Part shown: one piece after another, positions 5,742 to 51,892 of the stretch
Layout of the letters: every line of letters starts with the position of its first letter
Position numbering within the stretch: the stretch's first letter is position 1
From: Patescibacteria group bacterium
GTDB taxonomy: Bacteria > Patescibacteriota > Patescibacteriia > UBA2591 > UBA6264
Direction of reading: 5' to 3'
Length of the DNA: 64,000 bases
Assembly (NCBI GenBank): GCA_021735685.1
Contig: JAIPGN010000004.1
Location: forward strand, 959 to 64,958
Notes under the pieces: generated by a model
Databases searched by the model: none
Told to the model about the DNA's origin: nothing
Seen by the model: only the letters and a program-made list of their open reading frames with translations
Made by a program: the position numbers and the translations under genes

Positions 5742-5750
5742 ATAAAGAAA

Positions 5751-6596: not shown

Positions 6597-6618
6597 TGTT
6601 TTTATAGAAAAAGTGTTG

Positions 6619-6816: not shown

Positions 6817-7018
6817 AGTTTGAAATTATAATAAATTAACTTGTAGTAATAGATAGAAATTCGACTCTATTCCTACACTTACTAGCTAGTATTAGATTTT
6901 AAAAAAAAGATCTAATATGTTTTATATTATAAACTATTTTTCTTTTTTGTCAAATTGAAAAGAGTGGACAGAAGTGTATTTTTTTGCTATGCTTGAAAAA
7001 TAATAACTTCTAACGACT

Positions 7019-17900: not shown

Positions 17901-20900
17901 ATGGACTCGAGAAAAGTTAACAGTTAATTGTTGTTCAAGCGATCAGGATTGTTATGATCCAGATGACGATAGCACTAATCGATGCGCAGGAAGTATTTGT
18001 GATGACACTTATGGAATTTGTACGCCAATAATTAATGATTTTAGCCCTTCAGCTGGAGATCTTGAAGATTGGGTAACTATTAATGGTTGTTGGTTTAATA
18101 ATTATAACCAAAGTTATAGTCAGGTTAGCTTTAACGAAGAAGTTGCTTCTATTCCTTTTGACCGCTGCACTAATTCAGCCTGGCAAAATGAGCAAATTAT
18201 TGCTGAAGTTCCGGCTGAGCAAGGGAACCCTTTTGGAAAGATTCAGGTTGTTTCCGCTCCCTATGGTATTAATTTTGAAGTTTTGTCAGATAGTAATTTT
18301 TTAGAAGGTGATTCTTATGTGGGAATTTGTAATTTAAGGCCAGACCACGGCCCGACTGGTTTAATTACCGCTTTAACCACTAATGATAATTTAGCTCCTA
18401 GAGTGGGCCAAGATGCTGTTCATTATGGCAATCAAAGAGCGATGGCTTATCCAGAGCCTGGTTGGAGTGTGGCCTTTAAAGAAATTCGTTCTCAATCTCC
18501 AACAACTTTGCCTTTAGGGGAAATTTTAGTGAAAGTTAAGCAAGGCGGCCTTGATAGTAATTATTTGTCTTTTAATGTTGATCCAACTGGAGGTCAACCG
18601 GGAGATTTATGCATTGAAGGCTGTGGTCCTCTTTGTGATCTTGGCGCTCAGTTTTGTGAAAATCCTTATTTTTGTTTGCAACGTACCAGTGGCACTTGCC
18701 AAGATTGTCGTTGCTGTTGCCAAATTAGTGATCCAGAATCTTGTGGCACTGAATTAGAGTGTTTGGCTGGACAGGGTAATTGTACTGGAACGGAAAGGGG
18801 ACTTTGTTGTGGTTGTGAAAATGATGTTCAATGCGGAAGTGCTGGTTGTGGATTTTTAGATTCTAATCGTTGTTGCTATGCGCATCCCAGCGCAGTTTTT
18901 AATGCTTGTTCAGCTACTGATTTTCCTCAATTGGTTGGTCTTAACGCTTCTTTTGCTTTAAGCTTTGATCAACCAATGGATCGAAACCGAATGAATAACG
19001 ATTATATTAAAATTTCTAAAGCTGGACTTTGCGGAAATGACTCAGGGGAATATGACCAAGACCAGGGGAGATGTTATTTAGAAGGAGACATAGTTAGCGT
19101 TAATTCTGAAAATAATAATTCTACTGTTTTTTATCCTGATTCCTGCCGTTTAAGCACGAATCAAGAATATAAATTGGAATTCATAAAAGGCGAGAATGGT
19201 GCGGGGATTAGGTCTTTTCAGGGGGTTTCGGCTACAGCCATTGGAACCGAAGCTTGTTCTTGGGATAATTCTTTGTCTTGCGCTAATTTTGTGATTGATA
19301 CGGCCACTCAAGAGCAAGGTGGTTTTTGTGCAATAGAAACTATTAATGTTGAGCCCCGCGATTTTATAATTAAAGGATTAAATAATACGCATAATTTTTT
19401 AGCTTTAGCTTTGGACGAAGATGATAGTCCGGTTTGCGTGTCTGGCTTTGATTGGGAAAGTGAGAATCAAAGTATAGCAGCTGTTCAGCCAACTTTAGGA
19501 TTAGGGACAACGGCTCGCTCCATTAATTATGGAGAAACTTTTATCAAGGCTAGTGCTGAAGGAATAAGCTGTAGTTTAAGTGGAGATCCTTATACTTGTA
19601 CCAAACTAAAAGTTACGCCTACGGATTTACCTCAGGTGGTTGAGCAACAGAGCTGTGAAATTTGTGATTTGGGAGGTCAGTCTCCTTCGCCTTGGAAAGA
19701 TTCAGAGGAAAATTGCCCGAATGCTCAAATAGTTGTTCGTTTTAATCGTTTCTTAGAGCTAACCACTATTAACGTTAGTAATATTTTGGTTAAAGAATTT
19801 AATCCTAATACTCAGACTTATGAAGATTTTGATTATCAATCTTTAGATAAAATTAACGAAAATTCAGAAACCATTATTTACATTGATGGACCATTAAGCG
19901 CTGACAAAAATTATCAAGTTATTTTAAAAAGTGGATTATCTAATGAGGTTGGCGGTTTAAAAGATTTAAGCGGTTTACCCTTAGATGGTAATAAAAATAA
20001 TATTCAAGATGCCTCTCCTTTAGATGATTATGTCTGGGAATTTAGCACTGGTGCAACCAATTGTGTTTTGAATCAAGTTTGCGTTAATCCTCGCCAAACC
20101 ACTCAAATTAATCATCCCGGAAATCAAGTTTATTATACTGACACTTATGCTTCTAATTGTAATTATTTAGAGGCTAGTAATTTTAACGGGAATTACGTCT
20201 GGGCCTTGATCAATCAGCAACCAGCTAATCCCTCACAAGAAGTAGCAGAATTTATTTCCAGCATTGATGATTGGCAATCAGAGTTGAGCTCAAAGCATTT
20301 AGGAGAGGCTGATGTTGAAGTTAGTATTAATTCTCATCCTCAAATCAATGATAATGGCCATTTAATTGTAACTACGGTTCCGAACATAGAGTCTAGTTTG
20401 CCACAAGGAAATGAAGTTTGTCGTAATAGCATTATTCAAATTGGTTTTGATCAAGTCATGGAAGACGATTCTTTAAATGCTGATAATTTAGAAGTTTGGA
20501 GAAAATATAATAGCGCCCAGACTGGTCTGAATTGCGAAGGTAACTGTGATGAGGTTCCTCCTGTTGGTAGCAATTATCCACAAAACTTTTTGGCTAGTTT
20601 ATATTATAAAATTAAAAATATTTTTTATCCTCAGGCAGAAGCAGCTCAATTTCCTTCTGAAGATTGTTGGTGTCAATGGCCGCTTTCGGGCATTTCTTCG
20701 AGCATAGATGAGAATAATAAAAGTTTAGCTCGTCTTGATGCTGGTTTATTAAACGGAGAAGCTCAATATAAAGTGGTAATTAAAAGTGGAGTAGAGAGTC
20801 AATATGGAATTGATTTAGGATTAAATGATGAATGGCAATTTACTACTGGAGAATTATGTGAATTAACAAGAGTGGAAATTAGCCCTAGGGATGTTTATTT

Positions 20901-22245
20901 TAATAGTGCTGGTCTTTTAGAGAATTTAGAGGCGCAAGCCTTTGACGATCAGGGTAATGAAATTTTTGGAGTAAATGGTTATGATTGGGATTGGGGTTGG
21001 CAATCATCTCAACAAACTGTTGTAAATGTTAACTCGGTTGCCGGAGAACCAGAAAAAGCGGAAATTATTTCAGGTAGACAAGAGGGTATCTCTGAAATTG
21101 TGGCTACAGCTCAGTTGAATGTAGGAGGAGAGCCTACTAACACTTTAGTTGATGATCAAATTTCAGCACGAGTCTCTATTTGTGAATATCCATGGGTTTA
21201 TTTTGATGGAGGGGGGGGCGAAGGAACCAATTTTAATTTATTTTATTGTCGCGATCAAGAGCCTCTCTTGCCAAAATTACTTTATAAGGGAGGAGAAGTG
21301 AGTCCTAGTGGCTGTGGAAATGGTATTTTGCAACCCCCTGAGGCTTGTGATCTTTATGTTGGGGTTCCGTCTCATGCTACTTGTTCTTTTAATTGTTTGA
21401 GCTGGGAATGTAACGCGGGTTATTACAAAGAAAACAATATATGTCTTCCTAATATTCCCTTAGCTCCCTCTAATCTAGAAGTTGAAGTTGATAGTGATTT
21501 TCCCGGAAGTCGACTTAATTTAACTTGGAATGATAATTCTGTTAACGAAGAATTTTTTAAGATTGAAAGAAAGTCTAGGGCTTCTAATTGGCAGTTAGTG
21601 GATGAAGTAGGAGCCAATATTACTTCTTATGTCGATTCTGATTTAGATCCAGCCACTAAATATTATTATCGAGTTCGAGCCGGAAATACTTCAGGTAATT
21701 CCTCCTATACTACGGAAAGTTGGGCAATTACCCTTTGTTTAAATAATCAATGTTATTTTAACCAAGCTTGCTATAACTCTGAGCAATGTCAACCTAATTC
21801 TACCCAAATGTGCTTAAATGGCGAATGGATAAATTCTTGCGGAGATGGAATTTTAAATTGTAATGAAATTTGCGATGGGGTTATTGGAAGTATTCCCGGA
21901 AATAATACTCATTGTCAAAATGATTGTTTAAACTGGATTTGTGATGTTGGCTATGGTGATTGTGACGGAAATTCTTCTAACGGATGTGAAATTAATTTAT
22001 TAAATAACAATAGTCATTGCGGAGAATGTAATCAACCTTGTGGCGCTAATCAAAGTTGTGAAAACGGCATTTGTGTTTGTGAAAACAATTATGGTGATTG
22101 TGACGGAAATTCTTCTAACGGATGTGAAATTAATTTATTAAATAACAATAGTCATTGCGGAGAATGTAATCATCAATGTTCTGATACTGATGAATGTGAA
22201 TTTGGGCATTGTGTCGAAATAGCCCCCGCCCCCCCAACTGATTAA
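14908..22245 (+). CDS. Giant (2445-aa) cell-surface protein. The N-terminal double-TM region resembles a type IV secretion pilin (VirB2/TrbC-like). It continues into Ig-like regions, Myxococcus-type CGDG...CD cysteine-rich repeats, one FN3 domain, and C-terminal GDCDGN..NGCE..HCGEC repeats.
   Basis: Single long ORF. The N-terminus VQWMTSGGNSEKIKKAKALLSAALIGLLIIILAYALVSFIV matches the ...YMTSAGNPEKVSKAKK..IGLIIIL.AY motif of T4SS pilins (from memory). FN3: LNLTWNDNS...YYYRVRAGNTSG. Cys repeats: CGNGILQPPEACD, CGDGILNCNEICDG. Confidence 0.85.
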   Translation: MFFSKNKISLIVFLIILPIFFLFILAPLSAQDLGSGIVEEAGSSAGLGEGSLPIVLGKIFKIVLSVLGLVALILAIVAGVQWMTSGGNSEKIKKAKALLSAALIGLLIIILAYALVSFIVNKLTGVSGGGGGCTPGSCCADGLRCDENGQCTIADLACSTTFPSENFLLSRGEANFDANNQVYLCSNIRAVFNHNIKSNTVSAALNADALKVVDTDDNDTVEGEWQVAGKFITFTPDEFWEENTSYEMVIPLTISDSNNKYLSGCSAGFLPNGNCASLASQVKWSFLTNDQPDDISPFIKNSYPVKDLTTPDRNVSRAPVLEIIFNENIDYTTIIDTNHVDYDADDQSTWHPIAGNFQLCKIANQSTECVVGNEYNNDNLKVSLTSQGFRISLLNAQWLEAFGWYEIKVDGIEDMCGNVMEQSEAWTFQANDSVPGVQEWWPQGNNVCPDAPIGLRFGTSMYEQEVSVEVINTVTNAIEFAGSIKPSNFPAGGDYRSNLTTGNGSLLVMDDNDDEISNQFKIFQLELNSNLTNDSEYTIEINTDLIIDVDNNTLGKDWSFEVTNLQDCACAPIIYQTLPAQGPRGSCVTVTGYCFNGTLERPATINGFWFDDGDNPDGEISAEIMSSTSNSLTTVIPADFGEPIDDVPDELSERIKIVYEDNGEEVNIPSANQFTVISNQLAQGPCIWRLAPNQGKVSTNFEIKGIRLGSEEGNNYVGMNSWADHLNIEGAWTNEEIDQVVVPAFSTAGERDVKVAVFNEAEGNYLFSNPAPFDVIFDQPEVREFGCNPPPNYSSPSPYKNTQDACTGIDLMVEFTKNMKAYGANGVLNVANYTIRNCGSEENYNPADCSSIYYSPTNANFYDSSQNIVQLSLASSLSTNTWYQVSIQGNVRSQEEVAMGEDYIWHFKTRDNDLCPVAQIDLTPQNSMITGCSGSQQYTAQPVASNCNFLTASNYTYSWLSSQTEVATVGSGQNYQNTAQAIGGGYAWIKVTEDDSQKWTREKLTVNCCSSDQDCYDPDDDSTNRCAGSICDDTYGICTPIINDFSPSAGDLEDWVTINGCWFNNYNQSYSQVSFNEEVASIPFDRCTNSAWQNEQIIAEVPAEQGNPFGKIQVVSAPYGINFEVLSDSNFLEGDSYVGICNLRPDHGPTGLITALTTNDNLAPRVGQDAVHYGNQRAMAYPEPGWSVAFKEIRSQSPTTLPLGEILVKVKQGGLDSNYLSFNVDPTGGQPGDLCIEGCGPLCDLGAQFCENPYFCLQRTSGTCQDCRCCCQISDPESCGTELECLAGQGNCTGTERGLCCGCENDVQCGSAGCGFLDSNRCCYAHPSAVFNACSATDFPQLVGLNASFALSFDQPMDRNRMNNDYIKISKAGLCGNDSGEYDQDQGRCYLEGDIVSVNSENNNSTVFYPDSCRLSTNQEYKLEFIKGENGAGIRSFQGVSATAIGTEACSWDNSLSCANFVIDTATQEQGGFCAIETINVEPRDFIIKGLNNTHNFLALALDEDDSPVCVSGFDWESENQSIAAVQPTLGLGTTARSINYGETFIKASAEGISCSLSGDPYTCTKLKVTPTDLPQVVEQQSCEICDLGGQSPSPWKDSEENCPNAQIVVRFNRFLELTTINVSNILVKEFNPNTQTYEDFDYQSLDKINENSETIIYIDGPLSADKNYQVILKSGLSNEVGGLKDLSGLPLDGNKNNIQDASPLDDYVWEFSTGATNCVLNQVCVNPRQTTQINHPGNQVYYTDTYASNCNYLEASNFNGNYVWALINQQPANPSQEVAEFISSIDDWQSELSSKHLGEADVEVSINSHPQINDNGHLIVTTVPNIESSLPQGNEVCRNSIIQIGFDQVMEDDSLNADNLEVWRKYNSAQTGLNCEGNCDEVPPVGSNYPQNFLASLYYKIKNIFYPQAEAAQFPSEDCWCQWPLSGISSSIDENNKSLARLDAGLLNGEAQYKVVIKSGVESQYGIDLGLNDEWQFTTGELCELTRVEISPRDVYFNSAGLLENLEAQAFDDQGNEIFGVNGYDWDWGWQSSQQTVVNVNSVAGEPEKAEIISGRQEGISEIVATAQLNVGGEPTNTLVDDQISARVSICEYPWVYFDGGGGEGTNFNLFYCRDQEPLLPKLLYKGGEVSPSGCGNGILQPPEACDLYVGVPSHATCSFNCLSWECNAGYYKENNICLPNIPLAPSNLEVEVDSDFPGSRLNLTWNDNSVNEEFFKIERKSRASNWQLVDEVGANITSYVDSDLDPATKYYYRVRAGNTSGNSSYTTESWAITLCLNNQCYFNQACYNSEQCQPNSTQMCLNGEWINSCGDGILNCNEICDGVIGSIPGNNTHCQNDCLNWICDVGYGDCDGNSSNGCEINLLNNNSHCGECNQPCGANQSCENGICVCENNYGDCDGNSSNGCEINLLNNNSHCGECNHQCSDTDECEFGHCVEIAPAPPTD
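21952..22170 (+). repeat. Perfect 81-bp tandem duplication with a 138-bp period (copies at 21952-22032 and 22090-22170), inside the giant gene
   Basis: The identical string TATGGTGATTGTGACGGAAATTCTTCTAACGGATGTGAAATTAATTTATTAAATAACAATAGTCATTGCGGAGAATGTAAT occurs twice. Each copy encodes YGDCDGNSSNGCEINLLNNNSHCGECN. Confidence 0.9.
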
Positions 22246-22281: not shown

Positions 22282-25200
22282 ATGTATATTAAGGTACAAA
22301 AAAATATGATTAGCCGAAAAAATATTAAAAATTTGATTTTCCTCGGCTTGCTAACTTTTTTAGCTGGAATTTTTTGGTTTAATTTGCAAACAGATTTAGT
22401 TCATGCTGATCAAGCGGGCTTGGTTAAAGAATTTTTGTTTACTGTTCAGGGATCATCCGGAGATGCTATTGGAGTTAAAATAATGGAAAATCCACAACGA
22501 TTGACTCCTTCAGCTTGGTATCAACAGAATGTTCAAAATCCGGGAAATCCCAGTATTTTTATGGTCGATGGTTATTATGCTTTACGAGAGGGAAGAACTG
22601 TTTATGTGGGAGCAACTAATGTCAGCGGAGTTTCAAATGAAAACATTTCTTCTTATATTTATATTATTTCTTATAACGAAGGAGCTTCTGCGGAAACTGT
22701 TAATATTTTTAATCAATTACTAGAGAAATTTACTTTTAACACTAATCTTACTAACGCTGATCAAAGAGGAGAGATTCAAAGAGATTTGTTTAGAATTTAT
22801 GATTTAGATCAAATTTCTAGTGAACTAGAATCTTACTATGGTCAGCATGGGTCTTACCCTCCTATATCTTCTGGTTCTTATTTGAAGGGGGAGACCTATA
22901 GTGCTTGGCCTTCTTGGCAATATACTTTTGGCCAAGCTTTGGGGAAATCTTTGCCGGTTGATCCTTTAAATCGTTTTTATGGATCTTGTGCTGGTTGTCC
23001 CGATAACCCTCAACAATCCAATTATCAGTGTGATGGGACTTGTTATAATCCTTTAAATAAAGAATTTGCCCATCCCAACAATTCACATGTTTATGGTTAT
23101 TATACGCCAACTGAAAATGATTGTAGTGGGCAAGGATATGAGTTGTCAGCTAATTTTGAATATTATCCTTTTTCGGCCACTCCTCCTTTGCCAGCAGTAA
23201 GATGGTTAGGGGATAATGAAATTCAAATTTCTTTGCCAGATATCCTTGGTAAAAATAATTATATTGTTTCTCAAGGATTGGGGGAATGTGGTGATCAGGT
23301 TTTAAATGCTTGTGAGGAGTGTGAAATTATTGACAGCAATATGGTTCCTTCTGGCAAAACTTGTGCCAGTTTAGGATTGGGCTCTGGGTCCTTGAGTTGT
23401 GTTGATTGTCATTGGGATGGTTGTGGTAAACTAAGTAATGGAGAAAATTGTTCTTTGGATGTTGAGTGTTCTTCTGGCTATTGCAGCCCAGATGGAGTTT
23501 GTTGTAATACAGCTTGTCAAGGTCTTTGTCAGTCTTGTAATCAGTCTGGTCAAGAAGGCACCTGTCTTTTGGTGCCATCTGGAGAGGACCCAGGAGACGT
23601 TTGTTCGGACACAGCTCCTTGTTTAACTGGTAACTGCGATGGCCTTGGAGCTTGTGAGCTAGAATCAAGTGGTACTTCTTGTGGTGATTGTCAGTATTGT
23701 TCAGTAAATGGACAATGCTTGCCAGTTCCTTTTGGAGAAGATTACAATAATCAGTGTTCAGAAGATTCTAGTAATTGTGAGGCTGGCTATTGCGATGGTT
23801 ACGGCTCTTGTACTTACTATCCCGCTGGTTTTATTTGTGGTGATTGTAGATATTGTAGTAGCGCTTACCCACCTGATTGTAATGTTGTCCCCGGAGGCAC
23901 TAATTGGGGTTTTAATTATTATTGTGATAATAATGGTAATTTTGCTTGTTATGTCAATTGGGGAAATTGTGACGGGGATTGGAATACAGGTTGCGGAACT
24001 AATCTTTTGCTTGATCCGGAAAATTGCGGAGAATGTGATAATTCTTGTAGCGATAATCAAACTTGTCAATCAGGAGAATGCGTTTGTTTGCCTGGATATG
24101 CGGATTGCAATGGTGATCCCAGTGATGGCTGTGAAGCTTCTCTAAATAGCACTGATCATTGTGGTTACTGTGGCAACGATTGTCCTTCGGGTTATGACTG
24201 CTTAAATGGATCTTGCTCTCGTCCTGGTTCTTGCGGAGACGGAATTGTTCAGCCTGATTTTGAAGATTGCGATCCTAACGAAGATCCTATTCTTTCTTGG
24301 AGTCCAGGATTAGGACAACACTGCAACGATGTTTGTGAGATTGTGATTGATTTGAATATTTTACAAAACTATCCAGGAACAACTAATGATATTGATTTAC
24401 CGTCCATTGTTAATGAGTATAAAAATGACTCTGAGTTTCAATTAGCAATGAGAGACGTTGTTGTTACGTCTCAATCTTTAAGTTATTTTAACGATGATCC
24501 CGATTTTTTTATTCCTTCGGGAAACAGATTGGAATATTATAATGTCCTGGTTTTTGGTTGGAAAGATTGCAATGGTTCCGAAGATTTAAGCCCAGAGGCA
24601 GCAGCAGCAGTTGACGATTTTATTGACCAAGGTGGTTCTGTTATTTTTGGACATGATACTATTTGGCAAGAAGCTAATTCTGTTTGCGGAGGAACACATA
24701 CTAATTTTAATACTCTAAAGCATCATGCCGGCATTGGAGAGCTTAATAATTTTTCTGGCGTTGATCTTTTTAATAATGTGGGAGCTAATTTTAATTTAGC
24801 TGGGGGAAAACTTTTTACCATTCCTTATGTTTTAGAAGAAGAATTCGATGTTCTTTCTACTCATTTAAGTGGTCAAGTTTTAGATCCAGACACTTGTGAA
24901 GCTCCTGAAGGACTCAAAGTTTGGTATTATGCTAAAATTGATGGTTCTTTGGATTATAATAAACCTTGGGCTAACACTTGCGGAAAAGTGGAGATGATTC
25001 AATTGGGGCACATTACCGGAGAACCAGAGGATATGGAGAAAAAAGCTTTAATTAATATGCTTTATTATGTCGCTACAGCTGGAACTGATGTAGCTAATAA
25101 TCCTTCTGGCGGAGGAGGCGCACTAGGCACTGGCATATTTGGTGATTCTTGTGAGAGTGATGATGATTGCAGTGGCGACTTAAATTTAATTTGTGGCTTA

Positions 25201-25380
25201 GATGATACTTGTGCTTGTGGTGATGATTGGGGGAATTGTAATGGTAATCCTGATGATGGTTGCGAGACAAATTTATTAACTACTTGGTTACATTGTGGGG
25301 CTTGCACAAATCAATGTGACCCTGACGAAGATTGTGTAGATGGAACATGTGAGGGAGGAGGCGGTGGTAACCAATGGTAA
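22282..25380 (+). CDS. Large (1032-aa) secreted Cys-rich protein with CGDG...CD (Myxococcus-type) and xDCNGxPxDGCE..L....HCG.C repeats
   Basis: N-terminal signal/TM. Repeats include NWGNCDGDWNTGCGTNLLLDPENCGECDNSC, GYADCNGDPSDGCEASLNSTDHCGYCGNDC and DWGNCNGNPDDGCETNLLTTWLHCGACTNQC. The repeat type matches the C-terminus of the giant gene. Confidence 0.8.
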   Translation: MYIKVQKNMISRKNIKNLIFLGLLTFLAGIFWFNLQTDLVHADQAGLVKEFLFTVQGSSGDAIGVKIMENPQRLTPSAWYQQNVQNPGNPSIFMVDGYYALREGRTVYVGATNVSGVSNENISSYIYIISYNEGASAETVNIFNQLLEKFTFNTNLTNADQRGEIQRDLFRIYDLDQISSELESYYGQHGSYPPISSGSYLKGETYSAWPSWQYTFGQALGKSLPVDPLNRFYGSCAGCPDNPQQSNYQCDGTCYNPLNKEFAHPNNSHVYGYYTPTENDCSGQGYELSANFEYYPFSATPPLPAVRWLGDNEIQISLPDILGKNNYIVSQGLGECGDQVLNACEECEIIDSNMVPSGKTCASLGLGSGSLSCVDCHWDGCGKLSNGENCSLDVECSSGYCSPDGVCCNTACQGLCQSCNQSGQEGTCLLVPSGEDPGDVCSDTAPCLTGNCDGLGACELESSGTSCGDCQYCSVNGQCLPVPFGEDYNNQCSEDSSNCEAGYCDGYGSCTYYPAGFICGDCRYCSSAYPPDCNVVPGGTNWGFNYYCDNNGNFACYVNWGNCDGDWNTGCGTNLLLDPENCGECDNSCSDNQTCQSGECVCLPGYADCNGDPSDGCEASLNSTDHCGYCGNDCPSGYDCLNGSCSRPGSCGDGIVQPDFEDCDPNEDPILSWSPGLGQHCNDVCEIVIDLNILQNYPGTTNDIDLPSIVNEYKNDSEFQLAMRDVVVTSQSLSYFNDDPDFFIPSGNRLEYYNVLVFGWKDCNGSEDLSPEAAAAVDDFIDQGGSVIFGHDTIWQEANSVCGGTHTNFNTLKHHAGIGELNNFSGVDLFNNVGANFNLAGGKLFTIPYVLEEEFDVLSTHLSGQVLDPDTCEAPEGLKVWYYAKIDGSLDYNKPWANTCGKVEMIQLGHITGEPEDMEKKALINMLYYVATAGTDVANNPSGGGGALGTGIFGDSCESDDDCSGDLNLICGLDDTCACGDDWGNCNGNPDDGCETNLLTTWLHCGACTNQCDPDEDCVDGTCEGGGGGNQW

Positions 25381-32026: not shown

Positions 32027-32752
32027 ATGAAGATCCTTAAAAATGCAGGGGGTTTTGAAGTTTTAACCCCTTTTAAAAACCTCAAAAGGCAATTATTGGA
32101 CATAGAGAAAGCCGGTAGAACTTGTTATCAGTCAGAAAAAAAAGAGATAACAGAGGGGTCCGCTAAAAAATTCGTCCAAATGTTGATGAAAAGAGGCCAT
32201 TATAGCGTTTTAGAGCATAGCAACATGACGGTGAAATTCAAAAATATTTCTCGTGGCTTTACTCATGAACAAGTGCGACATAGGCTGACGGCTATTTCTC
32301 AAGAATCTACTAGATATGTAGATTATGCCAAAAAAGGAAAAGGGCCGGATTTAATGAAATTTCAGCTTAAATGTGTAGTCCCTCCACATAGGAACGAGGG
32401 GGAAAACGTAGAGTTGGAAAATGGACGCAAACTATCCCTTAAAGAAATGTTTACAGAAATTGAAGATTTTTACAGAGCCTTGCGTAAAGCTGGCTGGGCA
32501 CCAGAAGACGCGCGTCAGATTTTACCAATCGGCATTAAAGCAGAAATTGTTATATCCGCGAATTTCAGAGAATGGAGACATATCTTTAAAATGCGTACTT
32601 CAAAATTTGCTCATTGGGAAATTAGAAAGGTTATGGGTGATCTTTTGGTAAAAACACAAAGGCTAATACCCGGAGTGTTTGACGACTTTGTTCAAACTGG
32701 AGTGGACCAGAATGGCCTGCGCTACTTTGCCCCTCTCCCTCATAATCCATAA
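32027..32752 (+). CDS. thyX: Flavin-dependent thymidylate synthase ThyX
   Basis: ThyX signature RHR-x7-S (RHRLTAISQESTRY) with HYSVLEH upstream; 241 aa. Confidence 0.85.
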   Translation: MKILKNAGGFEVLTPFKNLKRQLLDIEKAGRTCYQSEKKEITEGSAKKFVQMLMKRGHYSVLEHSNMTVKFKNISRGFTHEQVRHRLTAISQESTRYVDYAKKGKGPDLMKFQLKCVVPPHRNEGENVELENGRKLSLKEMFTEIEDFYRALRKAGWAPEDARQILPIGIKAEIVISANFREWRHIFKMRTSKFAHWEIRKVMGDLLVKTQRLIPGVFDDFVQTGVDQNGLRYFAPLPHNP

Positions 32753-32792: not shown

Positions 32793-33254
32793 TTATTTTA
32801 TTATTTTCCACTTAATGTCTTTTTCTTCGCCCACAAATTCATGCCATTCTCCATCTTCATCTATCACAAACCATTTTTTCTTGGTTTGGCTCCAAATCAT
32901 GGGACTACCAGCGTAAAAAGGTTTCTTGACAACTTCTTTGGGCTTTAAGCGGTCTATTTCTAACCATTTTTTAAAAACGGTTTCAATAGCATAATCCAAA
33001 TTGCGAGATTGGGCCCATTTAGCTACACGATCAATAGCTTTTTGAGCTTTTTGAACCGAACCGGCTAAATCTAATAATTGTTTAGCTGGACGGGTAAAGC
33101 GAGAATAAATTATTTTTCGCTTTTTAGCGTTATTTTTTATTTCTTCCAAAGATAAACCTTTAGTATAAAAATAATAATTGACAATTTGTTGAATTTCAGT
33201 TTCTTTCTTTTTTTTAGTAATTTTTCTTTTTCCTTTTTGGGAAGAAATGACCAT
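32793..33254 (-). CDS. Hypothetical basic protein
   Basis: 153 aa, K-rich N-terminus, no recognised family. Confidence 0.45.
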   Translation of the reverse strand: MVISSQKGKRKITKKKKETEIQQIVNYYFYTKGLSLEEIKNNAKKRKIIYSRFTRPAKQLLDLAGSVQKAQKAIDRVAKWAQSRNLDYAIETVFKKWLEIDRLKPKEVVKKPFYAGSPMIWSQTKKKWFVIDEDGEWHEFVGEEKDIKWKIIK

Positions 33255-33356
33255 AAGATTTGATGATAAATTTTTTGTATCTACTTAGATTTATCTATAT
33301 GTCTATTATATTTTACCAAATTCTCTATTTTTTATCCAATCTTTTTGCTTAGGAGT

Positions 33357-33381
33357 TACTTAGGAGCCGAGCTCCTAAGTA
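33357..33381. repeat. 25-bp perfect palindrome TACTTAGGAGC-CGA-GCTCCTAAGTA. A partial third half-site CTTAGGAG sits at 33348. The reverse-complement twin is at 58020.
   Basis: Read directly from the sequence. This copy is not followed by a U-tract on either strand. Confidence 0.85.
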
Positions 33382-33422
33382 ATTAAAAAAGTTTGGAAGC
33401 TCAACCTCCAAGCTTTTAGTGA

Positions 33423-33451
33423 TTTACACAATTGAGGAAAGGTGATAAAAT
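33423..33451 (+). promoter_or_regulatory. Sigma70-like promoter TTTACA-17-TAAAAT for the e2b2-RuBisCO operon
   Basis: -35 at 33423-33428, -10 at 33446-33451, ~50 nt upstream of the ATG at 33502. Confidence 0.45.
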
Positions 33452-33501
33452 ATAAATATATAGTTTTATTTTAAAATAGAATTTTATTTAATTTAGTAAA
33501 T

Positions 33502-34422
33502 ATGGATAATTTAATCCAAAAAACTTTTAAAGATATCAAATCTTTGAAAGTCCAAGGAGCAACTGATGTTGCTATAGCCATTATGCAAGCAATTTCAGAT
33601 TATAGCTCCAGAATCAAAACTAATGATTTATCTGTTTTTAAGGAAAAAATTAAACAAGCAGCTGATTTATTGTTGTCAGCTCGACCCACAGAACCCATGG
33701 CTCAAAATGGCATTAAGGCTGTTTTGTCTCAACTAAAAAAAGAAAATAAGAATTTTATTTTAGCTCAAGATATTGTTCAAAGAACAGCAGAAGATTTTTT
33801 GATAATGATGGCTGATGCTGGAGATTTAGTTGTTAAACACGGAGAAGAATTAATTAAAAATAAAGAAAATATTTTTACTCATTGTCATTCCTGGTTGGTT
33901 GAACAAATTTTAATTAAAGCTTGGCAAAATCAGAAAAAAATTAAAGTTTATAATACTGAAACTCGACCCCTTTTTCAAGGCAGAGTGACGGCCCGAGAAT
34001 TATTAGCTGTGGGGATTCCCACTACTATGGTAGTTGATTCTTCGGCCGGTTTTTTAATTTCTCATCACTCAGGAAAAGAATTAATGATGGATAAAATTAT
34101 TTTAGGAGCAGACGCAATTTTATCTGATGGTTCAGTGATTAATAAAATTGGTAGCTTTACTATCGCCCTGGTAGCTAAACAGGAAGGAGTTCCTCTTTAT
34201 GTAGCTGCTAATTTATTAAAGTTTCACGATCAAATTGAAATAAAGATTGAAGAGCGTTCTCTTCAGGAATTATGGAAGGAGGCCCCTGATGATCTTAAGA
34301 TTATTAATTTTGCTTTTGATCGAATCCCTGCCGAATATATTACGGGTGGTATTATTTGTGAAGAGGGAATTATTAAACCCAAACAAGCAAAAACATTGAC
34401 TCAAAAAAATTATCAGCTTTAA
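33502..34422 (+). CDS. eIF-2B alpha/beta/delta-family isomerase. In this context probably ribose-1,5-bisphosphate isomerase (e2b2); MtnA-like is the alternative.
   Basis: Family pattern ...GADAILSDGSVINKIGSFTIALVAKQEGVPLYVAA...; 14 nt upstream of the RuBisCO gene. Confidence 0.7.
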   Translation: MDNLIQKTFKDIKSLKVQGATDVAIAIMQAISDYSSRIKTNDLSVFKEKIKQAADLLLSARPTEPMAQNGIKAVLSQLKKENKNFILAQDIVQRTAEDFLIMMADAGDLVVKHGEELIKNKENIFTHCHSWLVEQILIKAWQNQKKIKVYNTETRPLFQGRVTARELLAVGIPTTMVVDSSAGFLISHHSGKELMMDKIILGADAILSDGSVINKIGSFTIALVAKQEGVPLYVAANLLKFHDQIEIKIEERSLQELWKEAPDDLKIINFAFDRIPAEYITGGIICEEGIIKPKQAKTLTQKNYQL

Positions 34423-34436
34423 TTTAAAAAAATTTT

Positions 34437-35702
34437 ATGAAAGAAAAAAACAAATATCTTCAATTGGAATATAAGCCAAATTATCAAGAAGAAATCATCG
34501 CCACTTTTTATGGAGAATCAAATGGCAGTTTAGAAGAATTGAGTGAGCAAGTGGCTGGAGAGTCCTCAATTGGCACCTGGACTAAATTAACTACCCTTTC
34601 TGACGAGGTTTTTCAAAGATTGGGGGCCCGAATTTTTAGTTTAGACAAAAAGAATAATATTTTTAAAATTGCTTATCCTTTGTCTTTATTTGAAAAGGGG
34701 AGTATTCCTCAGCTTTTGTCTAGTGTGGGAGGAAATATTTTTAGCATGAAAGCAGTAAAGAATTTGCGTTTAGAAAATATAGAATTTCCAGAAAAATATA
34801 TTAAAAGTTATCCTGGTCCTTATTGGGGGATAGAAGGAATTAGAAAAATGTTAAATGTCTATGATCGCCCAATTATTGGTTGCATTATGAAGCCTAAAAT
34901 AGGATTAACTTCAAAGCAAAATGCTCAAATGGCTAGTCAAATTTTTGCTAATGGAGTGGATTTAATCAAAGATGACGAAAATTTAACTAGTTTAAGTTTT
35001 AATAAATTTGAAGATCGAGTTAAAAAAGTTTTAGAATTAAAGAAAAAAGTAGAAAAAAAGACCAATCAAAAGAAAATTTATGTTTTTAATGTTACGGCCC
35101 CAGTTAGTTTGATGTTAGAAAGGGCTCGACTAGTAAAAAAATTGGGTGGTCGTTGCGTGATGGTAGATGTTATTTCTGTTGGTTGGGGAGCGGTTCAAGA
35201 ATTAAGGCGACAAAATTTAAAACTTATTATCCATGGTCATCGAGCTGGACACTCTGCTTTTACTCGTAATAAAAAGCATGGAATTTCCATGCTGGTTCTC
35301 GCTAATTTAGCTCGCTTAGCCGGCATAGATCAATTTCACACTGGTACGGTTGTAGGAAAAATGGAAGGAGGAGAAGAGGAGGTTTGTTCTATTAATGATT
35401 TATTAAGAGAAGATTGGAGAGAATTTGATCAATTGAGGGAAAATTGGGCTTCTTTAAAGCCAATTTTACCAATTGCTTCTGGCGGCTTGCATCCAGGATT
35501 AGTTCCGCAATTGGTTGAAATTTTGGGGCAAAATTTAGTAATTAATTTTGGAGGTGGCCTGCATGGTCATCCCCAAGGAAGCGAAGCTGGAGCTCGAGCC
35601 GCAATTCAGTCTATAGAGGCTGTTCAAAAGGGTATTAAAATAAAAGAATACGCTAAAACTCATCCTGAATTAAAAGTAGCTCTCAATTATTGGAAATTTT
35701 AA
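34437..35702 (+). CDS. rbcL: RuBisCO large-subunit homologue, form III / II-III-like, with catalytic residues retained
   Basis: GCIMKPKIGL (the KPK Lys175 equivalent), GVDLIKDDEN (carbamylated Lys), IHGHRAGHSAF, PIASGGLH (loop 6) and FGGGLHGHPQG. Confidence 0.85.
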   Translation: MKEKNKYLQLEYKPNYQEEIIATFYGESNGSLEELSEQVAGESSIGTWTKLTTLSDEVFQRLGARIFSLDKKNNIFKIAYPLSLFEKGSIPQLLSSVGGNIFSMKAVKNLRLENIEFPEKYIKSYPGPYWGIEGIRKMLNVYDRPIIGCIMKPKIGLTSKQNAQMASQIFANGVDLIKDDENLTSLSFNKFEDRVKKVLELKKKVEKKTNQKKIYVFNVTAPVSLMLERARLVKKLGGRCVMVDVISVGWGAVQELRRQNLKLIIHGHRAGHSAFTRNKKHGISMLVLANLARLAGIDQFHTGTVVGKMEGGEEEVCSINDLLREDWREFDQLRENWASLKPILPIASGGLHPGLVPQLVEILGQNLVINFGGGLHGHPQGSEAGARAAIQSIEAVQKGIKIKEYAKTHPELKVALNYWKF

Positions 35703-35744
35703 AATTAGCTTAAGTCTTTTTAAGCAGTTTTTGAATAAAACAAA

Positions 35745-35776
35745 ACACTGAAGAAATTGATTCTTCAGTGTTTTTT
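35745..35776 (+). terminator. Bidirectional rho-independent terminator between rbcL (+) and the convergent minus-strand gene
   Basis: ACACTGAAGAA-attga-TTCTTCAGTGT (11-bp stem) with TTTTTT after it and AAAA before it. Confidence 0.7.
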
Positions 35777-35802: not shown

Positions 35803-37167
35803 TTAAATTTTAATCATTTCGCCAGCAGAATGAATGTTTAAAATTTCTGGAGATACTTCAATTATTGATTCCCATTGATACCCCAAGGCTTCAAAGGTTT
35901 TTTCTGAAAGAATAGGGCGATATTGGCCCTGACTAATAACATAAACTGCTGGAGACTCTGATGTTTTTAACAAAGAGCCGTCTCTAAACTTAAGGTGTTC
36001 TCCGGTTTGATATCTTTCTAGCTCTTCAGAATCTACTTTAATGATATTATTATAAGGAAAGTTATTTTCTAAAATACTTAAATCAACAATTGGTCTTTTA
36101 ATGATATCTTTAACGTAATAAACTCCTTTGTTTTCTTTATCTTGCAAAAGGGCTCCGTTAGGGTAGGGGGAACTAATTCTGGCTCCTTCTTGATAACTCA
36201 ATAAATCTTTTTCTTCAACTTGAATAATCTCTTCTGGATTGAATCCAATTGCCCTAAACATTTTTTCAGAAATAGGTCTTTTTTGGCCATCAATTAATAA
36301 GAATATCTCTTCTTTATTTTGAACTAAAGAATAATTAGGGAAATTAACTGGGCTCCCAATTTCATATTTTTCTAATATTTTTGGGTCTACTATTTTTACT
36401 TCTTCAAATTTGTGATTTAGTAAAAAGATTGTAGCGGAATGAAAGGGACGTTTTTTGTTATTTTGAATCAACCAGACCCCATTTTCATTATTGGTCCTGA
36501 CTAAAGATCCTTCTTCTATTTGTCCTTGTTCGGGAGGGAACCAATTGTGCCAGAGGATCCAGAAAAGTCGATTGCCGGCGATATGTGGGGTGTAATTATA
36601 AAGAGCGGCTGTGGCTGAATTTTGTGGCACCACTCGTTGCCAACTAATTCTATAAACTTGACCGGATCGATAAGTAAATTCCCAGGGATGTTCTAAAAAA
36701 TATTTTAAACGCCAAGCGGCTCGATCTACCTGAATCGCAAACCCTCGAAAACTTTTTACCGGGCCTCGATGATCATAGCAAGCAAATCCCGTTGCCCAAT
36801 TATAATCATCTAAACTAGGGTTAGTTTTGGTAATTAACCCTTTTTCTTTTTGAAGAAGAGTTAAAATTACTTGTGGATTGATTTGATATTCTTGGGTGAC
36901 GCGATAAATAATTTCTGAAGCTGTTTTCTCTCGACCATCAATATCTTGAGTTTGATAATTTTTAATTCCTCCACCAGAACTTTCTAGAAAATTCTGAATT
37001 TCTTCTTGACTCATTGATTGAAAATTGGTTAATTCATAATCAGAAATAATATAATCAGGTCTAAAAGAAGAGGCTTTTCCTGGCCAAGGAATGAAAACCA
37101 AAGAAGCAATTAAAAGAATTAATATCTTTTCCTTGGTAAGGTTAGTGAACTTGAAAAAATTTTTCAT
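35803..37167 (-). CDS. Secreted protein with an N-terminal unknown domain and three C-terminal ~65-aa repeats of the (F)RDGSLLK...VY.I..G.KR type
   Basis: Signal peptide. The C-terminus LKFRDGSLLKTSESPAVYVISQGQYRPILSEKTFEALGYQWESIIEV matches the repeats of CDS 3-1079 and CDS 25494-27446. Confidence 0.6.
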   Translation of the reverse strand: MKNFFKFTNLTKEKILILLIASLVFIPWPGKASSFRPDYIISDYELTNFQSMSQEEIQNFLESSGGGIKNYQTQDIDGREKTASEIIYRVTQEYQINPQVILTLLQKEKGLITKTNPSLDDYNWATGFACYDHRGPVKSFRGFAIQVDRAAWRLKYFLEHPWEFTYRSGQVYRISWQRVVPQNSATAALYNYTPHIAGNRLFWILWHNWFPPEQGQIEEGSLVRTNNENGVWLIQNNKKRPFHSATIFLLNHKFEEVKIVDPKILEKYEIGSPVNFPNYSLVQNKEEIFLLIDGQKRPISEKMFRAIGFNPEEIIQVEEKDLLSYQEGARISSPYPNGALLQDKENKGVYYVKDIIKRPIVDLSILENNFPYNNIIKVDSEELERYQTGEHLKFRDGSLLKTSESPAVYVISQGQYRPILSEKTFEALGYQWESIIEVSPEILNIHSAGEMIKI

Positions 37168-39792
37168 TTATTTTTTTGCTTGTTGAATAACTATTTTTTC
37201 GTTTTTAGCATCGACCTTAAAACTGGAAAAAGATTGTTCGTCTTTATTTACGATTTGCAAAGCAAGGGGATCGAGAATTTGTTTTTGAATAACCCTTTTT
37301 AAAGGACGTGCTCCGTAAACTGAGTCAAAGCCCAAAGAGACCAAAAGAGTTTTTACCTTTCCTGAAACCTGTAATTTAATATTTTTACTTTTTAATCTTT
37401 CGATAATTAATTTTAATTGTAAATTCACTATTTGACGAATAGCTTTTTTATCAAGTACATGGAAAATTATGATTTCATCAATTCGATTTAGGAATTCAGG
37501 TTTAAATTTTTCTCGCAAAGCTTCTTGAATTTTATTTTTAATATTTGCTTCAGACCCATTTTTTTCATTTTGAGAAAGGAAACCAAAATTTATTTTTTGA
37601 GCATAATCTCGAATTAATTCACTGCCCAAATTTGAGGTCATAATAATTACTGTATTCTTAAAATTTACTTCTCTTCCTTTAGCATCAGTCAAATGACCTT
37701 CATCCAAAATTTGTAATAAGATATTAAAGACCTGAGGATGAGCTTTTTCAATTTCGTCCAAGAGGATCACGCTATAAGGTCTTCTCCTGACCATTTCTGT
37801 TAGCTGTCCTCCTTCTTCATGCCCAACATACCCAGGGGGAGAGCCAATTATCTTAGAAGCTGTGTGCCGTTCCATATATTCAGACATATCTAATCTAATC
37901 AAAGAATTTTCTGTATTAAAAAGAAATTCCGCCAAACGTTTAGCTAATTCTGTTTTTCCCACTCCACTGGGTCCTAAAAAAATGAAAGAACCAATGGGTT
38001 TATCTTCTTCGGCAATTCCAGCTCGAGAGCGACGAATGGCATTAGCCACTGCACTTACTGCCTCTTCTTGGTCAATAAATTTCTTGTGAATTTCTTTTTC
38101 CATTTTTACCAATTTTTTGCTTTCTTTTTCTAGCATCTTAGTAACTGGGATACCGGTCCAAGTAGAAACTACTTTCGCGATCTCTTCAGCCGATATTTCT
38201 TCTTTTAAAATACGAGAATCCTTTTGGATTTTGGCTAATTTTTTTTCCGCATTCTTAATTTTTTTCTCCAAGCTTGGAATTTCGCCATATTTAATTTCAG
38301 CTACTTTTTGCAAACTGCCTTCTCTTTCTGCTATTTCTGCCTTTTGCTTAAGGTGATCAATTTCTTCTTTAGCCTTATGAATATTCGTAATAATGTCTTT
38401 TTCTGTTTTCCAGCGAATTTCAAATTCATTAATCTTTTCTTTAAGGTTGGCAGCTTGTTTCTTAAGGTTCCTTAATTTATCTTTAGAGTCTTTATCTTTT
38501 TTAAGAATAGTGATTTCAATTTCAATCTGACGCAATTTTCTTTTGATTCTATCTAATTCTTCGGGTTGACTTTCTATTTCTAATCTAAGGGCAGAGGCAG
38601 CTTCATCCATTAAATCAATGGCCTTGTCTGGCAAAAAACGATCAGTAATGTATCGATGAGATAATTGAGCGGCAGCAATTAAAGCATCATCAGCAATACG
38701 AATGCCGTGATGAACTTCGTACTTCTCTTTAATTCCTCGTAAAATAGCAATAGTGTCTTCGGGGCTAGGTTCTTTTATTTGTACGGGCTGAAAACGTCTT
38801 TCTAGGGCGGCATCTTTTTCAATATATTTTTGATATTCTTTGAGAGTAGTTGCTCCAACACAATGTAATTCACCGCGAGCCAAAGCTGGTTTAAGCATGT
38901 TGGAGGCGTCAATAGATCCTTCCGCTCCACCAGCTCCCACTAAAGTGTGCAATTCATCGATAAAAAGGATGTATTGGGCGCTTTTTTTAATCTCCTTTAA
39001 GACTGATTTTAAACGATTTTCAAATTCGCCTCTAAATTTAGCACCAGCAATTAATCCTCCTAAATCTAAAGAAATTAATTCGCGACCCCTTAGAGATTCG
39101 GGAATGTCGTTAGAAATAATTCTTTGGGCTAAGCCTTCAGCAATAGCTGTTTTTCCTACTCCTGCTTCTCCAATTAGAACTGGATTATTCTTGGTGCGAC
39201 GGCTAAGAACTTGAATCACTCTCCTGATTTCGTCATCACGGCCAATAATGGGGTCTAATTTTTCTTGCCGTGCCATTTCGGTTAAATTAATCGTATATTT
39301 TTTTAAAGCGCTGTATTGACCTCTTTCATTCCCTTCTTGACCTTCTTCTTGATGAACACTTTCTAAAACTTTAACAACATTTTCATAATTAATTTTTTCT
39401 TCTAAAAACATATCTTTCAAAGGAGAGGGGGTAGACAAGAGGGCCAAAAAAAGGTGTTCAGTGCCCACATATTCATTTTTAAGATGACGCGCTTCTTTAT
39501 TGGCTTTAATTATTGCCTTTTGGAATAATTGAGTAACATATAAATCAGCTAAACCGCTTTCTATGTCTTCAGACTTAATCTTCGGTAAAGTTTCAATATT
39601 TTTAACAATCTTTTTTTCTATTCTTTCTAGATTAGCTTCCATTTTTTTAAGTACAGCCAAAACTACGCCTTCCTCTTGTTTGAGCAGGGCCAAAGCTAAA
39701 TGAAGAATATCTACCTGTTGTTGGTTGTAACGCATAGCAATATTATGCGCTGCTTGAATAGCTTCTTGAGCTTTGAAAGTAAATTTATTCAT
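37168..39792 (-). CDS. clpB: ATP-dependent chaperone ClpB
   Basis: Clp N-domain, two AAA+ modules (GEAGVGKTAIAEGLAQRI and GPSGVGKTELAKRLA) and a middle coiled coil. I chose the start MNKFTF (ATG at 39790-39792); the track start 22 codons upstream is probably spurious. Confidence 0.93.
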   Translation of the reverse strand: MNKFTFKAQEAIQAAHNIAMRYNQQQVDILHLALALLKQEEGVVLAVLKKMEANLERIEKKIVKNIETLPKIKSEDIESGLADLYVTQLFQKAIIKANKEARHLKNEYVGTEHLFLALLSTPSPLKDMFLEEKINYENVVKVLESVHQEEGQEGNERGQYSALKKYTINLTEMARQEKLDPIIGRDDEIRRVIQVLSRRTKNNPVLIGEAGVGKTAIAEGLAQRIISNDIPESLRGRELISLDLGGLIAGAKFRGEFENRLKSVLKEIKKSAQYILFIDELHTLVGAGGAEGSIDASNMLKPALARGELHCVGATTLKEYQKYIEKDAALERRFQPVQIKEPSPEDTIAILRGIKEKYEVHHGIRIADDALIAAAQLSHRYITDRFLPDKAIDLMDEAASALRLEIESQPEELDRIKRKLRQIEIEITILKKDKDSKDKLRNLKKQAANLKEKINEFEIRWKTEKDIITNIHKAKEEIDHLKQKAEIAEREGSLQKVAEIKYGEIPSLEKKIKNAEKKLAKIQKDSRILKEEISAEEIAKVVSTWTGIPVTKMLEKESKKLVKMEKEIHKKFIDQEEAVSAVANAIRRSRAGIAEEDKPIGSFIFLGPSGVGKTELAKRLAEFLFNTENSLIRLDMSEYMERHTASKIIGSPPGYVGHEEGGQLTEMVRRRPYSVILLDEIEKAHPQVFNILLQILDEGHLTDAKGREVNFKNTVIIMTSNLGSELIRDYAQKINFGFLSQNEKNGSEANIKNKIQEALREKFKPEFLNRIDEIIIFHVLDKKAIRQIVNLQLKLIIERLKSKNIKLQVSGKVKTLLVSLGFDSVYGARPLKRVIQKQILDPLALQIVNKDEQSFSSFKVDAKNEKIVIQQAKK

Positions 39793-39983
39793 AAGTGCTT
39801 TAATTAATATTTTTTCTATCTTAATACTTATTTTAATAAAAAAAGAGACGCTTGTCAAAAGATTGACAAAAGACTTAGAAGAGAGTAAAGAGGTGTTACT
39901 TAGAAGTGCAAAACTTTCTGAAGAGTTAAAGAAAAAATTACCCCTATTTTTTTTCTCAAGGAAAAATGTTATAATTAATCAAT

Positions 39984-50614: not shown

Positions 50615-51892
50615 TTAAACGACCTTTGTGGTTTTAAATAATTTTTGAATTCTCTTGCGACTTTCAGTAATAATTTTTTCTTCATCTTTAATTCGATAAT
50701 CACGCATAATAGCTTGACCATTACAGAAAACATCCGAAATTAAACCCGCCGAACTTTGAGCGTAAATTAAATTAGACAAAAGATCGTGATTGGGAATAAA
50801 ATTTAAATGGTTTAAGTCAATTAAGATAAAGTCCGCTAGTTTTCCTATTTTTAATTCTCCAGCATTGAGATTAAAAGCTTGAGCGGCATTTTTAGTAGCA
50901 AGGTTGAAAACTTCCTGAACCGGTAAAAGGCTAGAATTTTCATTTTGTGCCCTTTGCAATAAAGAAGCAAATTTCATTTCCGACCAAAGATTTAAACTGT
51001 TATTTGAGGCAGATCCGTCTGTGCCCAAGCAAATATTGATTCCCGCTTCCTTTAATTGAGAATAAGGGAAAATTCCAGAGCCTAATTTCATGTTAGAGCA
51101 AGGACTATAAACAATTTGGCATTTTTTTTCTTTTAATATTTCAATTTCTTTTTTAGAGAGCCAGATTGCATGCACCAAAAGGGTTTGAGGGGCCAATAGA
51201 CCAATTTCGTTTAAATATTCAACTGGTCTCATTTGATTTGTTTTAAGACAATCTTCAACCTCTTTTTTGGTTTCTGAGCAATGAATATGAATTGGCAATT
51301 TGTTTCTCTGACTAAAATTTTTAGCCCAGGTTAAATTTTCTAAAGAAAGGGTGTAAATAGAATGAGGGGCTAAAGTTAGGGAAAGCAAACTGGTTTCTTT
51401 TTTACTTAAAATTTCCCATTTTTTTTGCACTTCTTCTTTACTCCCCCCGTTTGATTGAGAATCTATTAAAAAAAGACCTAAATGGGCCCTTAAACCCATT
51501 TCTTGGACAGCTAACCAAGAAGCGTCAACTTGCCAATACATATCATTAAAACAAGTGGTGCCAGCTTTAATCATCTTCAAGGCTGCTAATTTAGTAGCCC
51601 AATAAATATCTTCTGAACCTAATTGAGCTTCTTTGGGCCATATTTTTTTCTCTAGCCAATCTTTTAATGGTAAATCATCAGCATAACCCTGCAAAAAAGA
51701 CATTGCTGCGTGAGTGTGACTATTAATTAAGCCCGGTAAAATAGCCTTTTTTGCTTGACAATCAATAACTAAATCAGCTTTTGTCTTAATTTCTTTGGTT
51801 ATTTCCACTATGCTTTCGTTTTCTATATAAAAATCCTTTAAAGAGTGGTCTAAGTCAACAGCATTTTTAATTAAAATAGTTCTTTTTTTCAT
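50615..51892 (-). CDS. Amidohydrolase-superfamily nucleoside/base deaminase (MtaD or guanine-deaminase-like)
   Basis: Metal-binding HxH (LPGLINSHTHAAMS), a downstream HxHxxE-type region, and DG near the C-terminus; 425 aa. Confidence 0.7.
   Translation of the reverse strand: MKKRTILIKNAVDLDHSLKDFYIENESIVEITKEIKTKADLVIDCQAKKAILPGLINSHTHAAMSFLQGYADDLPLKDWLEKKIWPKEAQLGSEDIYWATKLAALKMIKAGTTCFNDMYWQVDASWLAVQEMGLRAHLGLFLIDSQSNGGSKEEVQKKWEILSKKETSLLSLTLAPHSIYTLSLENLTWAKNFSQRNKLPIHIHCSETKKEVEDCLKTNQMRPVEYLNEIGLLAPQTLLVHAIWLSKKEIEILKEKKCQIVYSPCSNMKLGSGIFPYSQLKEAGINICLGTDGSASNNSLNLWSEMKFASLLQRAQNENSSLLPVQEVFNLATKNAAQAFNLNAGELKIGKLADFILIDLNHLNFIPNHDLLSNLIYAQSSAGLISDVFCNGQAIMRDYRIKDEEKIITESRKRIQKLFKTTKVV

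Follow-up and report, generated by a model that had tools for sequence, protein, structure and literature searches.

A two-gene operon encoding a putative ribose-1,5-bisphosphate isomerase and a form III-c RuBisCO in a Patescibacteria group bacterium

We analyze a two-gene operon, e2b2-rbcL, in a 64,000-nucleotide stretch of DNA from a Patescibacteria group bacterium (hereafter the window; positions 959 to 64,958 of contig JAIPGN010000004.1, assembly GCA_021735685.1). The operon very probably specifies a ribose-1,5-bisphosphate (R15P) isomerase and a carboxylating form III-c RuBisCO that together convert R15P, CO2 and H2O into two molecules of 3-phosphoglycerate. This reading is carried by the observed identity of both genes, their intact residues, the clade of the RuBisCO, the conserved adjacency and synteny of the locus and the purifying selection acting on it. 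In the host, a candidate phyla radiation (CPR) bacterium of Parcubacteria type, the isomerase would turn R15P into ribulose-1,5-bisphosphate (RuBP) by means of its Cys128/Asp204 pair, the RuBisCO would carboxylate RuBP at a carbamylated Lys178-Mg2+ site, and the two molecules of 3-phosphoglycerate produced would enter lower glycolysis. The pair would carry out the two final steps of ribose salvage by the archaeal-type AMP, or pentose-bisphosphate, pathway, the usual R15P supplier of which, AMP phosphorylase (DeoA), is not linked to the operon in this lineage.

This pathway is established in Thermococcus kodakarensis and has been proposed for the CPR (PMC5113843, PMC6389311), and the work describing the CPR nucleoside pathway demonstrated that a CPR form II/III enzyme is active (PMC5113843). 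An original prediction made from the letters of the window alone had recognized the gene pair and described its role in the CPR as established, in agreement with these publications. The system itself is already known: the window RbcL is identical to NCBI MCF7907109.1, deposited on a 65,237-bp contig, so that the protein is public and correctly named, and papers from 2016 to 2019 describe its clade, its neighbourhood and the part proposed for it in CPR ribose salvage. The sole mildly new point is the lineage-wide loss of deoA and of a HAD hydrolase gene from the ancestral cluster.

Results

Gene identity and active site of the RuBisCO

The window has a GC content of about 33%, and e2b2 and rbcL occur in it as two co-directional open reading frames (ORFs) on the + strand, separated by 14 nt (Table 1). 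The Pfam domain PF01008 (IF-2B) matches e2b2 over its full length (4e-65), and RuBisCO_large (1e-88) and RuBisCO_large_N (7e-34) match rbcL, with scores that exclude chance as the source of both identifications. On the type III equivalog model TIGR03326, RbcL reaches 532.4 bits, above the cut-off of 497.45, and it remains below the cut-offs of the form II model (271 vs 489 bits) and of the type IV/MtnW models (248 vs 409 and 196 vs 514 bits). Its closest solved relatives are archaeal form III-b enzymes (Pyrococcus horikoshii 2cwx, at 3.6e-122, 6hun and T. kodakarensis 1geh), and its identity to solved form III-b enzymes amounts to 44-48%.

In an alignment of 207 sequences, RbcL matches the spinach, Thermococcus and Pyrococcus enzymes at each of the 21 catalytic and substrate-binding positions. 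The residues are E42, T47, W48, N100, K152, K154, K178, D180, E181, H268, R269, H272, H301, K308, S348-G350 and G372-G373, the spinach reference positions being E60, T65, W66, N123, K175, K177, K201, D203, E204, H294, R295, H298, H327, K334, S379-G381 and G403-G404. The alignment takes spinach as its form I and R. rubrum as its form II reference, 100% identical to PDB entries 1ir1/8ruc and 9rub, respectively. At the positions of spinach T173 and L335, RbcL has I and M, as do form III-b and form II. K178 occupies the position of the carbamylated lysine, which is therefore retained in the alignment to Thermococcus RbcL.

The motifs from which the original prediction had argued for a true carboxylase are all present, with KPK at K152/K154, KDDE at K178/D180/E181, SGG at S348-G350 and GGG at G372/G373. 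The attribution of SGG to loop 6 does not hold, since we take this motif (spinach S379-G381) to lie outside loop 6 and the loop-6 lysine to be K308 (spinach K334), which RbcL also has. Because all carboxylase positions are intact and the protein is placed outside the type IV models, a type IV RuBisCO-like protein is excluded on both of the grounds that would have refuted the original prediction; judged by its sequence, RbcL is a carboxylating-type RuBisCO, as had been considered probable.

Clade of the RuBisCO

A neighbor-joining tree of 207 sequences, computed with 100 bootstraps and with III-c, III-b, form I and form II sequences as its labelled references, places the window RbcL inside a 23-member subclade that has 100/100 support and holds one of five deposited Form III-c sequences (P0018). 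These five relatives carry the label "RuBisCO long chain, Form III-c" and are 60-70% identical to the window RbcL. Bootstrap support for setting them and the window RbcL apart is 100/100 with respect to the form I, form II and PDB III-b sequences and only 51/100 with respect to all 64 archaeal loci. In defining III-c, Jaffe et al. 2019 (Mol Biol Evol, PMC6389311) reported about 50% similarity to III-b and weakly supported separating branches, and the weak boundary between III-c and III-b in our tree matches the low support given there. In a scan of GTDB genomes, the best match listed is 64% identical, and the window's own species is not among the matches listed.

The name "Form III-like" designates a separate, deep-branching clade (Wrighton 2016; Jaffe 2019), most members of which carry an insertion of about 11 amino acids (PMC6389311). 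The alignment reveals no insertion in the window RbcL with respect to the solved III-b enzymes, and its nearest labelled relatives are III-c; on these two grounds we rejected the III-like clade. The tree and the alignment thus assign RbcL to form III-c, and neither to the clade named III-like nor to type IV. The earlier placement in form III rather than type IV stands, and its "form-III-like" label gives way to III-c.

The isomerase

The closest solved relatives of the e2b2 product are the R15P isomerases 3a11 (T. kodakarensis, 145 bits) and 5yfj (P. horikoshii, 142 bits), at about 1e-41, and these outscore both the solved MtnA structures (91-99 bits) and eIF2B subunits. The only NCBIfam model whose cut-off it passes is the broad TIGR00524 (210 bits, cut-off 186). 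Taking as reference the crystallographic residue roles of the P. horikoshii R15P isomerase PH0208 (PMC5789824), we find that the catalytic pair is kept as C128 and D204 (C133/D202 in T. kodakarensis, C135/D204 in P. horikoshii), along with the 1-phosphate ligands R61, Q159 and K215, the 5-phosphate ligands S130 and K240 and the sugar ligand N214. R22 of the P. horikoshii enzyme is replaced by Q18, a substitution found in 21 of 22 CPR and 34 of 37 archaeal RuBisCO-linked homologues. Its proximity to solved R15P isomerases and its conserved catalytic and phosphate-binding residues bear out the e2b2 family membership proposed beforehand for the gene next to rbcL.

Organization and conservation of the operon

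In essentially all CPR III-c loci fetched, e2b2 lies directly 5' of rbcL on the same strand. Comparison with L001, a relative at 90% identity, yields ratios of nonsynonymous to synonymous substitution rates (dN/dS) of 0.082 for e2b2 and 0.085 for rbcL, with dS of about 0.6, and both genes are under strong purifying selection. A terminator hairpin with a 14-bp stem follows rbcL, and none is present between e2b2 and rbcL. Its folding energy is -16.8 kcal/mol on the + strand (z -4.4) and -18.2 kcal/mol on the - strand (z -5.7), T-runs flank it on both strands, and it is kept in L001 with a compensatory stem change (CTG/CAG to CCG/CGG). The reading as a two-gene operon holds on the features of the locus, namely the 14-nt gap, the conserved adjacency, the predicted hairpin terminator and the dN/dS of about 0.08.

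The original prediction had set this operon under a clear sigma70 promoter, of which the operon holds and the promoter is plausible. The promoter-like site is the best + strand match between 32700 and 36000 (10/12), matches to the promoter consensus are not enriched in this AT-rich DNA (15 found vs 11.2 expected), and the TGnTAAAAT element is conserved in L001 and L006, the -35 hexamer not. We regard the site as a plausible extended -10 promoter, from which we infer that e2b2 and rbcL are co-transcribed. No Rfam family matched at gathering thresholds anywhere in the window, nor at E<=1 between 33150 and 33600, where a riboswitch or other RNA 5' of e2b2 was sought; no tRNA was found in the window, and the fold predicted for the leader lacks significance (z -1.3).

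Two adjacent strong hairpins, formed on both strands, occupy 33354-33417, in the divergent intergenic region just 5' of the promoter-like site (combined folding energy about -30 kcal/mol, z -4.4). Both are kept in L001 with changed loops, and the second is followed on the - strand by TTTTTT, in a terminator-like arrangement. These hairpins may insulate the divergent genes from each other, or may serve the 153-aa gene as leader or attenuator.

Synteny of the cluster and loss of the third gene

The usual III-c cluster is e2b2-rbcL-deoA, and III-c genomes show the tightest clustering of the three genes, all three being present in 67% of them (PMC6389311). A homologue of AMP phosphorylase of about 499 aa lies directly 3' of rbcL in 13 of the 14 informative CPR III-c loci from GTDB; these homologues pass TIGR02645 (522-527 bits, cut-off 435) and NF003338, and score 503-520 bits on the AMP-phosphorylase equivalog TIGR03327 (cut-off 535). 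All 8 loci of the window's subclade (the window, L001, L004, L006, L088, L089, L090 and L091; RbcL 70-100% identical) carry e2b2-rbcL only, within a shared frame of fmt - (thyX) - p153 - e2b2 - rbcL - (LemA, LigB) - p454 - clpB.

Sister lineages with the same frame, whose ClpB is 66-69% and p153 72% identical to those of the window, hold fuller clusters at the same site, between fmt/p153 and LigB/p454/ClpB (L176, L172 and L020; Table 1). The ancestral site must therefore have had the full cluster, and the comparison indicates that the window's subclade lost deoA and the HAD gene from it. The HAD gene of the sister lineages may encode a phosphatase, for instance for phosphoglycolate. The same loci indicate that RuBisCO forms have been swapped in place within a conserved cluster, consistent with the lateral transfer described in PMC6389311.

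A 156-aa gene of the cytidylyl/adenylyltransferase family (PF01467, weakly similar to RfaE domain II) stands between e2b2 and rbcL at L004:9529-9999 and L005:9529-9999, in a relative with a 73% identical RbcL.

Copies of deoA elsewhere in these genomes were sought in several ways. In a protein search with the closest deoA, that of L020, the long contigs of the subclade were not among the best 120 matches, and neither were the known rbcL-adjacent deoA genes on contigs of 564 kb and 148 kb. When metagenomes were scanned with a deoA alignment, the target contigs were likewise not among the at least 600 matches listed. Nine deoA candidates from NCBI were compared by accession, and none belongs to the MCF79... 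series of the window RbcL.

Weighing of the evidence and alternative explanations

Several observations weigh against the favoured reading of the pair. The e2b2 product scores 209.2 bits on the e2b2 equivalog model TIGR00511, below the cut-off of 314.1. The AMP-activator site of the Thermococcales isomerases (R124, R190, K194, N209, R229, W231 and D290 in P. horikoshii) is not conserved in it, the positions being occupied by L117, G183, S187, D209, G229, P231 and T281. No deoA occurs in the window, nor in flanks of 8-10 kb per side (less at contig ends) of all 8 subclade loci. Form III-c enzymes had, according to PMC6389311, no biochemical assay at that time. The first of these points extends to the whole CPR group, for which the TIGR00511 cut-off is too strict, since six other CPR e2b2 proteins also fall below it (165-208 bits), five of the six from clusters with deoA. 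Loss of the activator site is also common to the CPR homologues, and most archaeal loci keep R124, R190 and D290; CPR e2b2 enzymes are probably not AMP-activated, and the lost residues suggest a different regulation in the CPR.

The lack of AMP phosphorylase in the window had already been reported in the original prediction and was confirmed by Pfam scans of the larger ORFs and by tblastn (E>1). With deoA missing both from the window and from the subclade flanks, one alternative reading keeps the same chemistry and lets the pair of this subclade run without AMP phosphorylase. R15P would then come from a nucleoside phosphorylase and a ribose-1-phosphate kinase, from dephosphorylation of phosphoribosyl pyrophosphate (PRPP) or from uptake from a host; the first of these routes is attributed to T. 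kodakarensis by Aono 2015, as cited in PMC5113843. That sister lineages keep e2b2-HAD-rbcL-deoA at a site from which all 8 subclade loci lost HAD and deoA speaks in favour of this possibility, as do the persistent strong purifying selection on e2b2 and rbcL and the restriction of the complete gene set to two thirds or so of III-c genomes given above. On the other side, deoA may have relocated elsewhere in the genome, and neither a nucleoside phosphorylase nor a PfkB-type kinase nor a PRPP enzyme occurs in the window. We consider supply by another route possible, if unlikely. Were deoA truly absent, the subclade would, by deleting AMP phosphorylase and HAD, have arrived at a distinct two-enzyme pathway variant fed by another R15P source, a conclusion that we hold to be improbable.

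Two further readings fare worse. Both protein families are common to methionine salvage, in which MtnA (methylthioribose-1-phosphate isomerase, of the eIF-2B family) works with the type IV enolase MtnW, as in Bacillus, and the one model that e2b2 passes, TIGR00524, is named by NCBI after MtnA. RbcL, however, passes the type III model and, with 196-248 bits, stays under the MtnW cut-offs of 409-514; all its carboxylase residues are intact, K178, D180, E181, H268 and K308 included. The e2b2 product obtains 209 bits on the e2b2 model vs 150 on the mtnA equivalog, as well as 145 bits to R15P isomerases vs 91-99 to MtnA structures, and the neighbour of the pair in relatives is an AMP-phosphorylase homologue, not mtnK/B/X/D. 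Model scores, intact residues and deoA neighbours bring the MtnA/MtnW reading close to refutation, and we assign it almost no probability. It is also very unlikely, though slightly less so, that the enzyme serves a cycle of Calvin-Benson-Bassham (CBB) type fed by phosphoribulokinase (PRK), with e2b2 as an incidental neighbour. PRK homologues do occur in some III-c CPR, and such a cycle has been suggested for some Gottesmanbacteria (PMC6389311); they are reported there only in Gottesmanbacteria and Peregrinibacteria, whereas the nearest relatives here are of Parcubacteria/Minisyncoccia type. There is no PRK in the window or in the flanks examined, and the tight, conserved coupling of e2b2 and rbcL argues that RuBP comes from R15P. 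An R15P isomerase working with a carboxylating form III-c RuBisCO remains the reading that we favour.

Other features of the window

Table 1 Coordinates of the operon, its flanking genes and the clusters of sister lineages. Positions are those of the window for the first eight rows and those of the respective locus for the last three
Feature	Position	Strand	Description and basis
Promoter-like site	33423..33451	+	TTTACA-17-TAAAAT with TG at -15/-14 (extended -10), 50 nt 5' of the e2b2 start codon; predicted
e2b2	33502..34422	+	eIF-2B-family sugar-phosphate isomerase, putative R15P isomerase, 306 aa; PF01008, TIGR00524, PDB, residues
rbcL	34437..35702	+	Form III-c RuBisCO large subunit, 421 aa, without small subunit; TIGR03326, tree, residues
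Bidirectional intrinsic-terminator hairpin	35742..35774	both	Between convergent rbcL (+) and ORF 35803-37167 (-); folding, T-runs
thyX	32027-32752	+	Flanking gene
p153	32793-33254	-	153-aa ORF without annotation; flanking gene, divergent from e2b2
p454	35803-37167	-	454-aa ORF without family; flanking gene, convergent with rbcL
clpB	37168-39858	-	Flanking gene
L176 sister locus	3143-7503		e2b2 - HAD hydrolase - rbcL - deoA; RuBisCO III-c-like
L172 sister locus	2993-7503		e2b2 - HAD - rbcL - deoA; RuBisCO of 481 aa, nearest to form II, with 39% identity to R. rubrum
L020 sister locus	1539-5234		e2b2 - rbcL - deoA; RuBisCO III-c-like

The two flanking ORFs p153 and p454 have no Pfam match even at E<=1, and p153 also has no NCBIfam match. 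The p153 ORF keeps a constant position and shows 72-95% identity across lineages whose e2b2 and fmt reach only 51-90% and 47-86% identity, respectively; it is an unusually well conserved small protein without family match.

The gene at 50615-51892 (-), which had been described as a nucleoside or base deaminase, encodes an Amidohydro_1 protein of the deaminase/chlorohydrolase group. Its best matches are to models of chlorohydrolase, 5'-deoxyadenosine deaminase and methylthioadenosine/S-adenosylhomocysteine deaminase, all under cut-off (e.g. 402 vs 609), and we found no evidence that links this amidohydrolase, at a distance of 15 kb, to the operon.

A giant protein of 2445 aa, encoded at 14908-22245 (+), carries a T4SS-pilin-like segment at its N terminus, Big_5 Ig-like domains, and an Fn3 domain at its C terminus. 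The protein of 1032 aa that follows it at 22282-25380 (+) has a DUF5057 tail, and the two probably form a cell-surface or attachment apparatus. The large subunit of exonuclease VII (XseA) at 55514-57028 (-) carries an N-terminal HRDC domain (residues 6-70, 8e-22), an architecture atypical for XseA. Between about 36000 and 45000, GC skew turns from positive to negative and gene orientation from mostly + to mostly -, with a peak of cumulative skew near 44 kb, a pattern that fits converging replication forks in a terminus-like region. The parA and parB genes lie at 12.5-14.6 kb.

Discussion

The operon resembles the III-c system of Jaffe et al. (PMC6389311) in its clade, in the position of e2b2 directly 5' of rbcL, in its identical catalytic residues and in its distance from III-b (about 44-48% vs the paper's figure of about 50%), and differs from it in that the cluster of the window's subclade is without deoA and shows no e2b2-rbcL fusion. 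With the T. kodakarensis pathway (DeoA, the E2b2 enzyme 3a11 and the form III-b RuBisCO 1geh/3a12) it shares both enzyme families, the Cys/Asp pair of the isomerase and the full set of carboxylase residues. It differs from that pathway in showing only 45-46% identity for RbcL and only 145 bits for e2b2, in a host that is bacterial (CPR) and AT-rich; the AMP-activator residues of the Thermococcales isomerase are replaced, and the genes are organized as an operon. The CPR form II/III and III-like enzymes of Wrighton et al. 2016 (ISME J, PMC5113843) offer a further parallel, as ribose salvage from nucleosides with e2b2 and deoA was proposed for them in fermentative CPR. The window enzyme, in contrast to those RuBisCOs, belongs to another clade, is without the insertion and scores far under the cut-off of the form II model.

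As a clean example of this pathway's core, the locus adds little to existing knowledge. The syntenic comparison illustrates two published themes, the in-place swapping of RuBisCO forms in a conserved e2b2/deoA cluster and the uneven retention of deoA as third gene. Should the loss of deoA prove to be genome-wide, it would point to an alternative supply of R15P in these minimal-genome bacteria, the candidate sources being a pathway through ribose-1-phosphate kinase, PRPP or a metabolite derived from a host.

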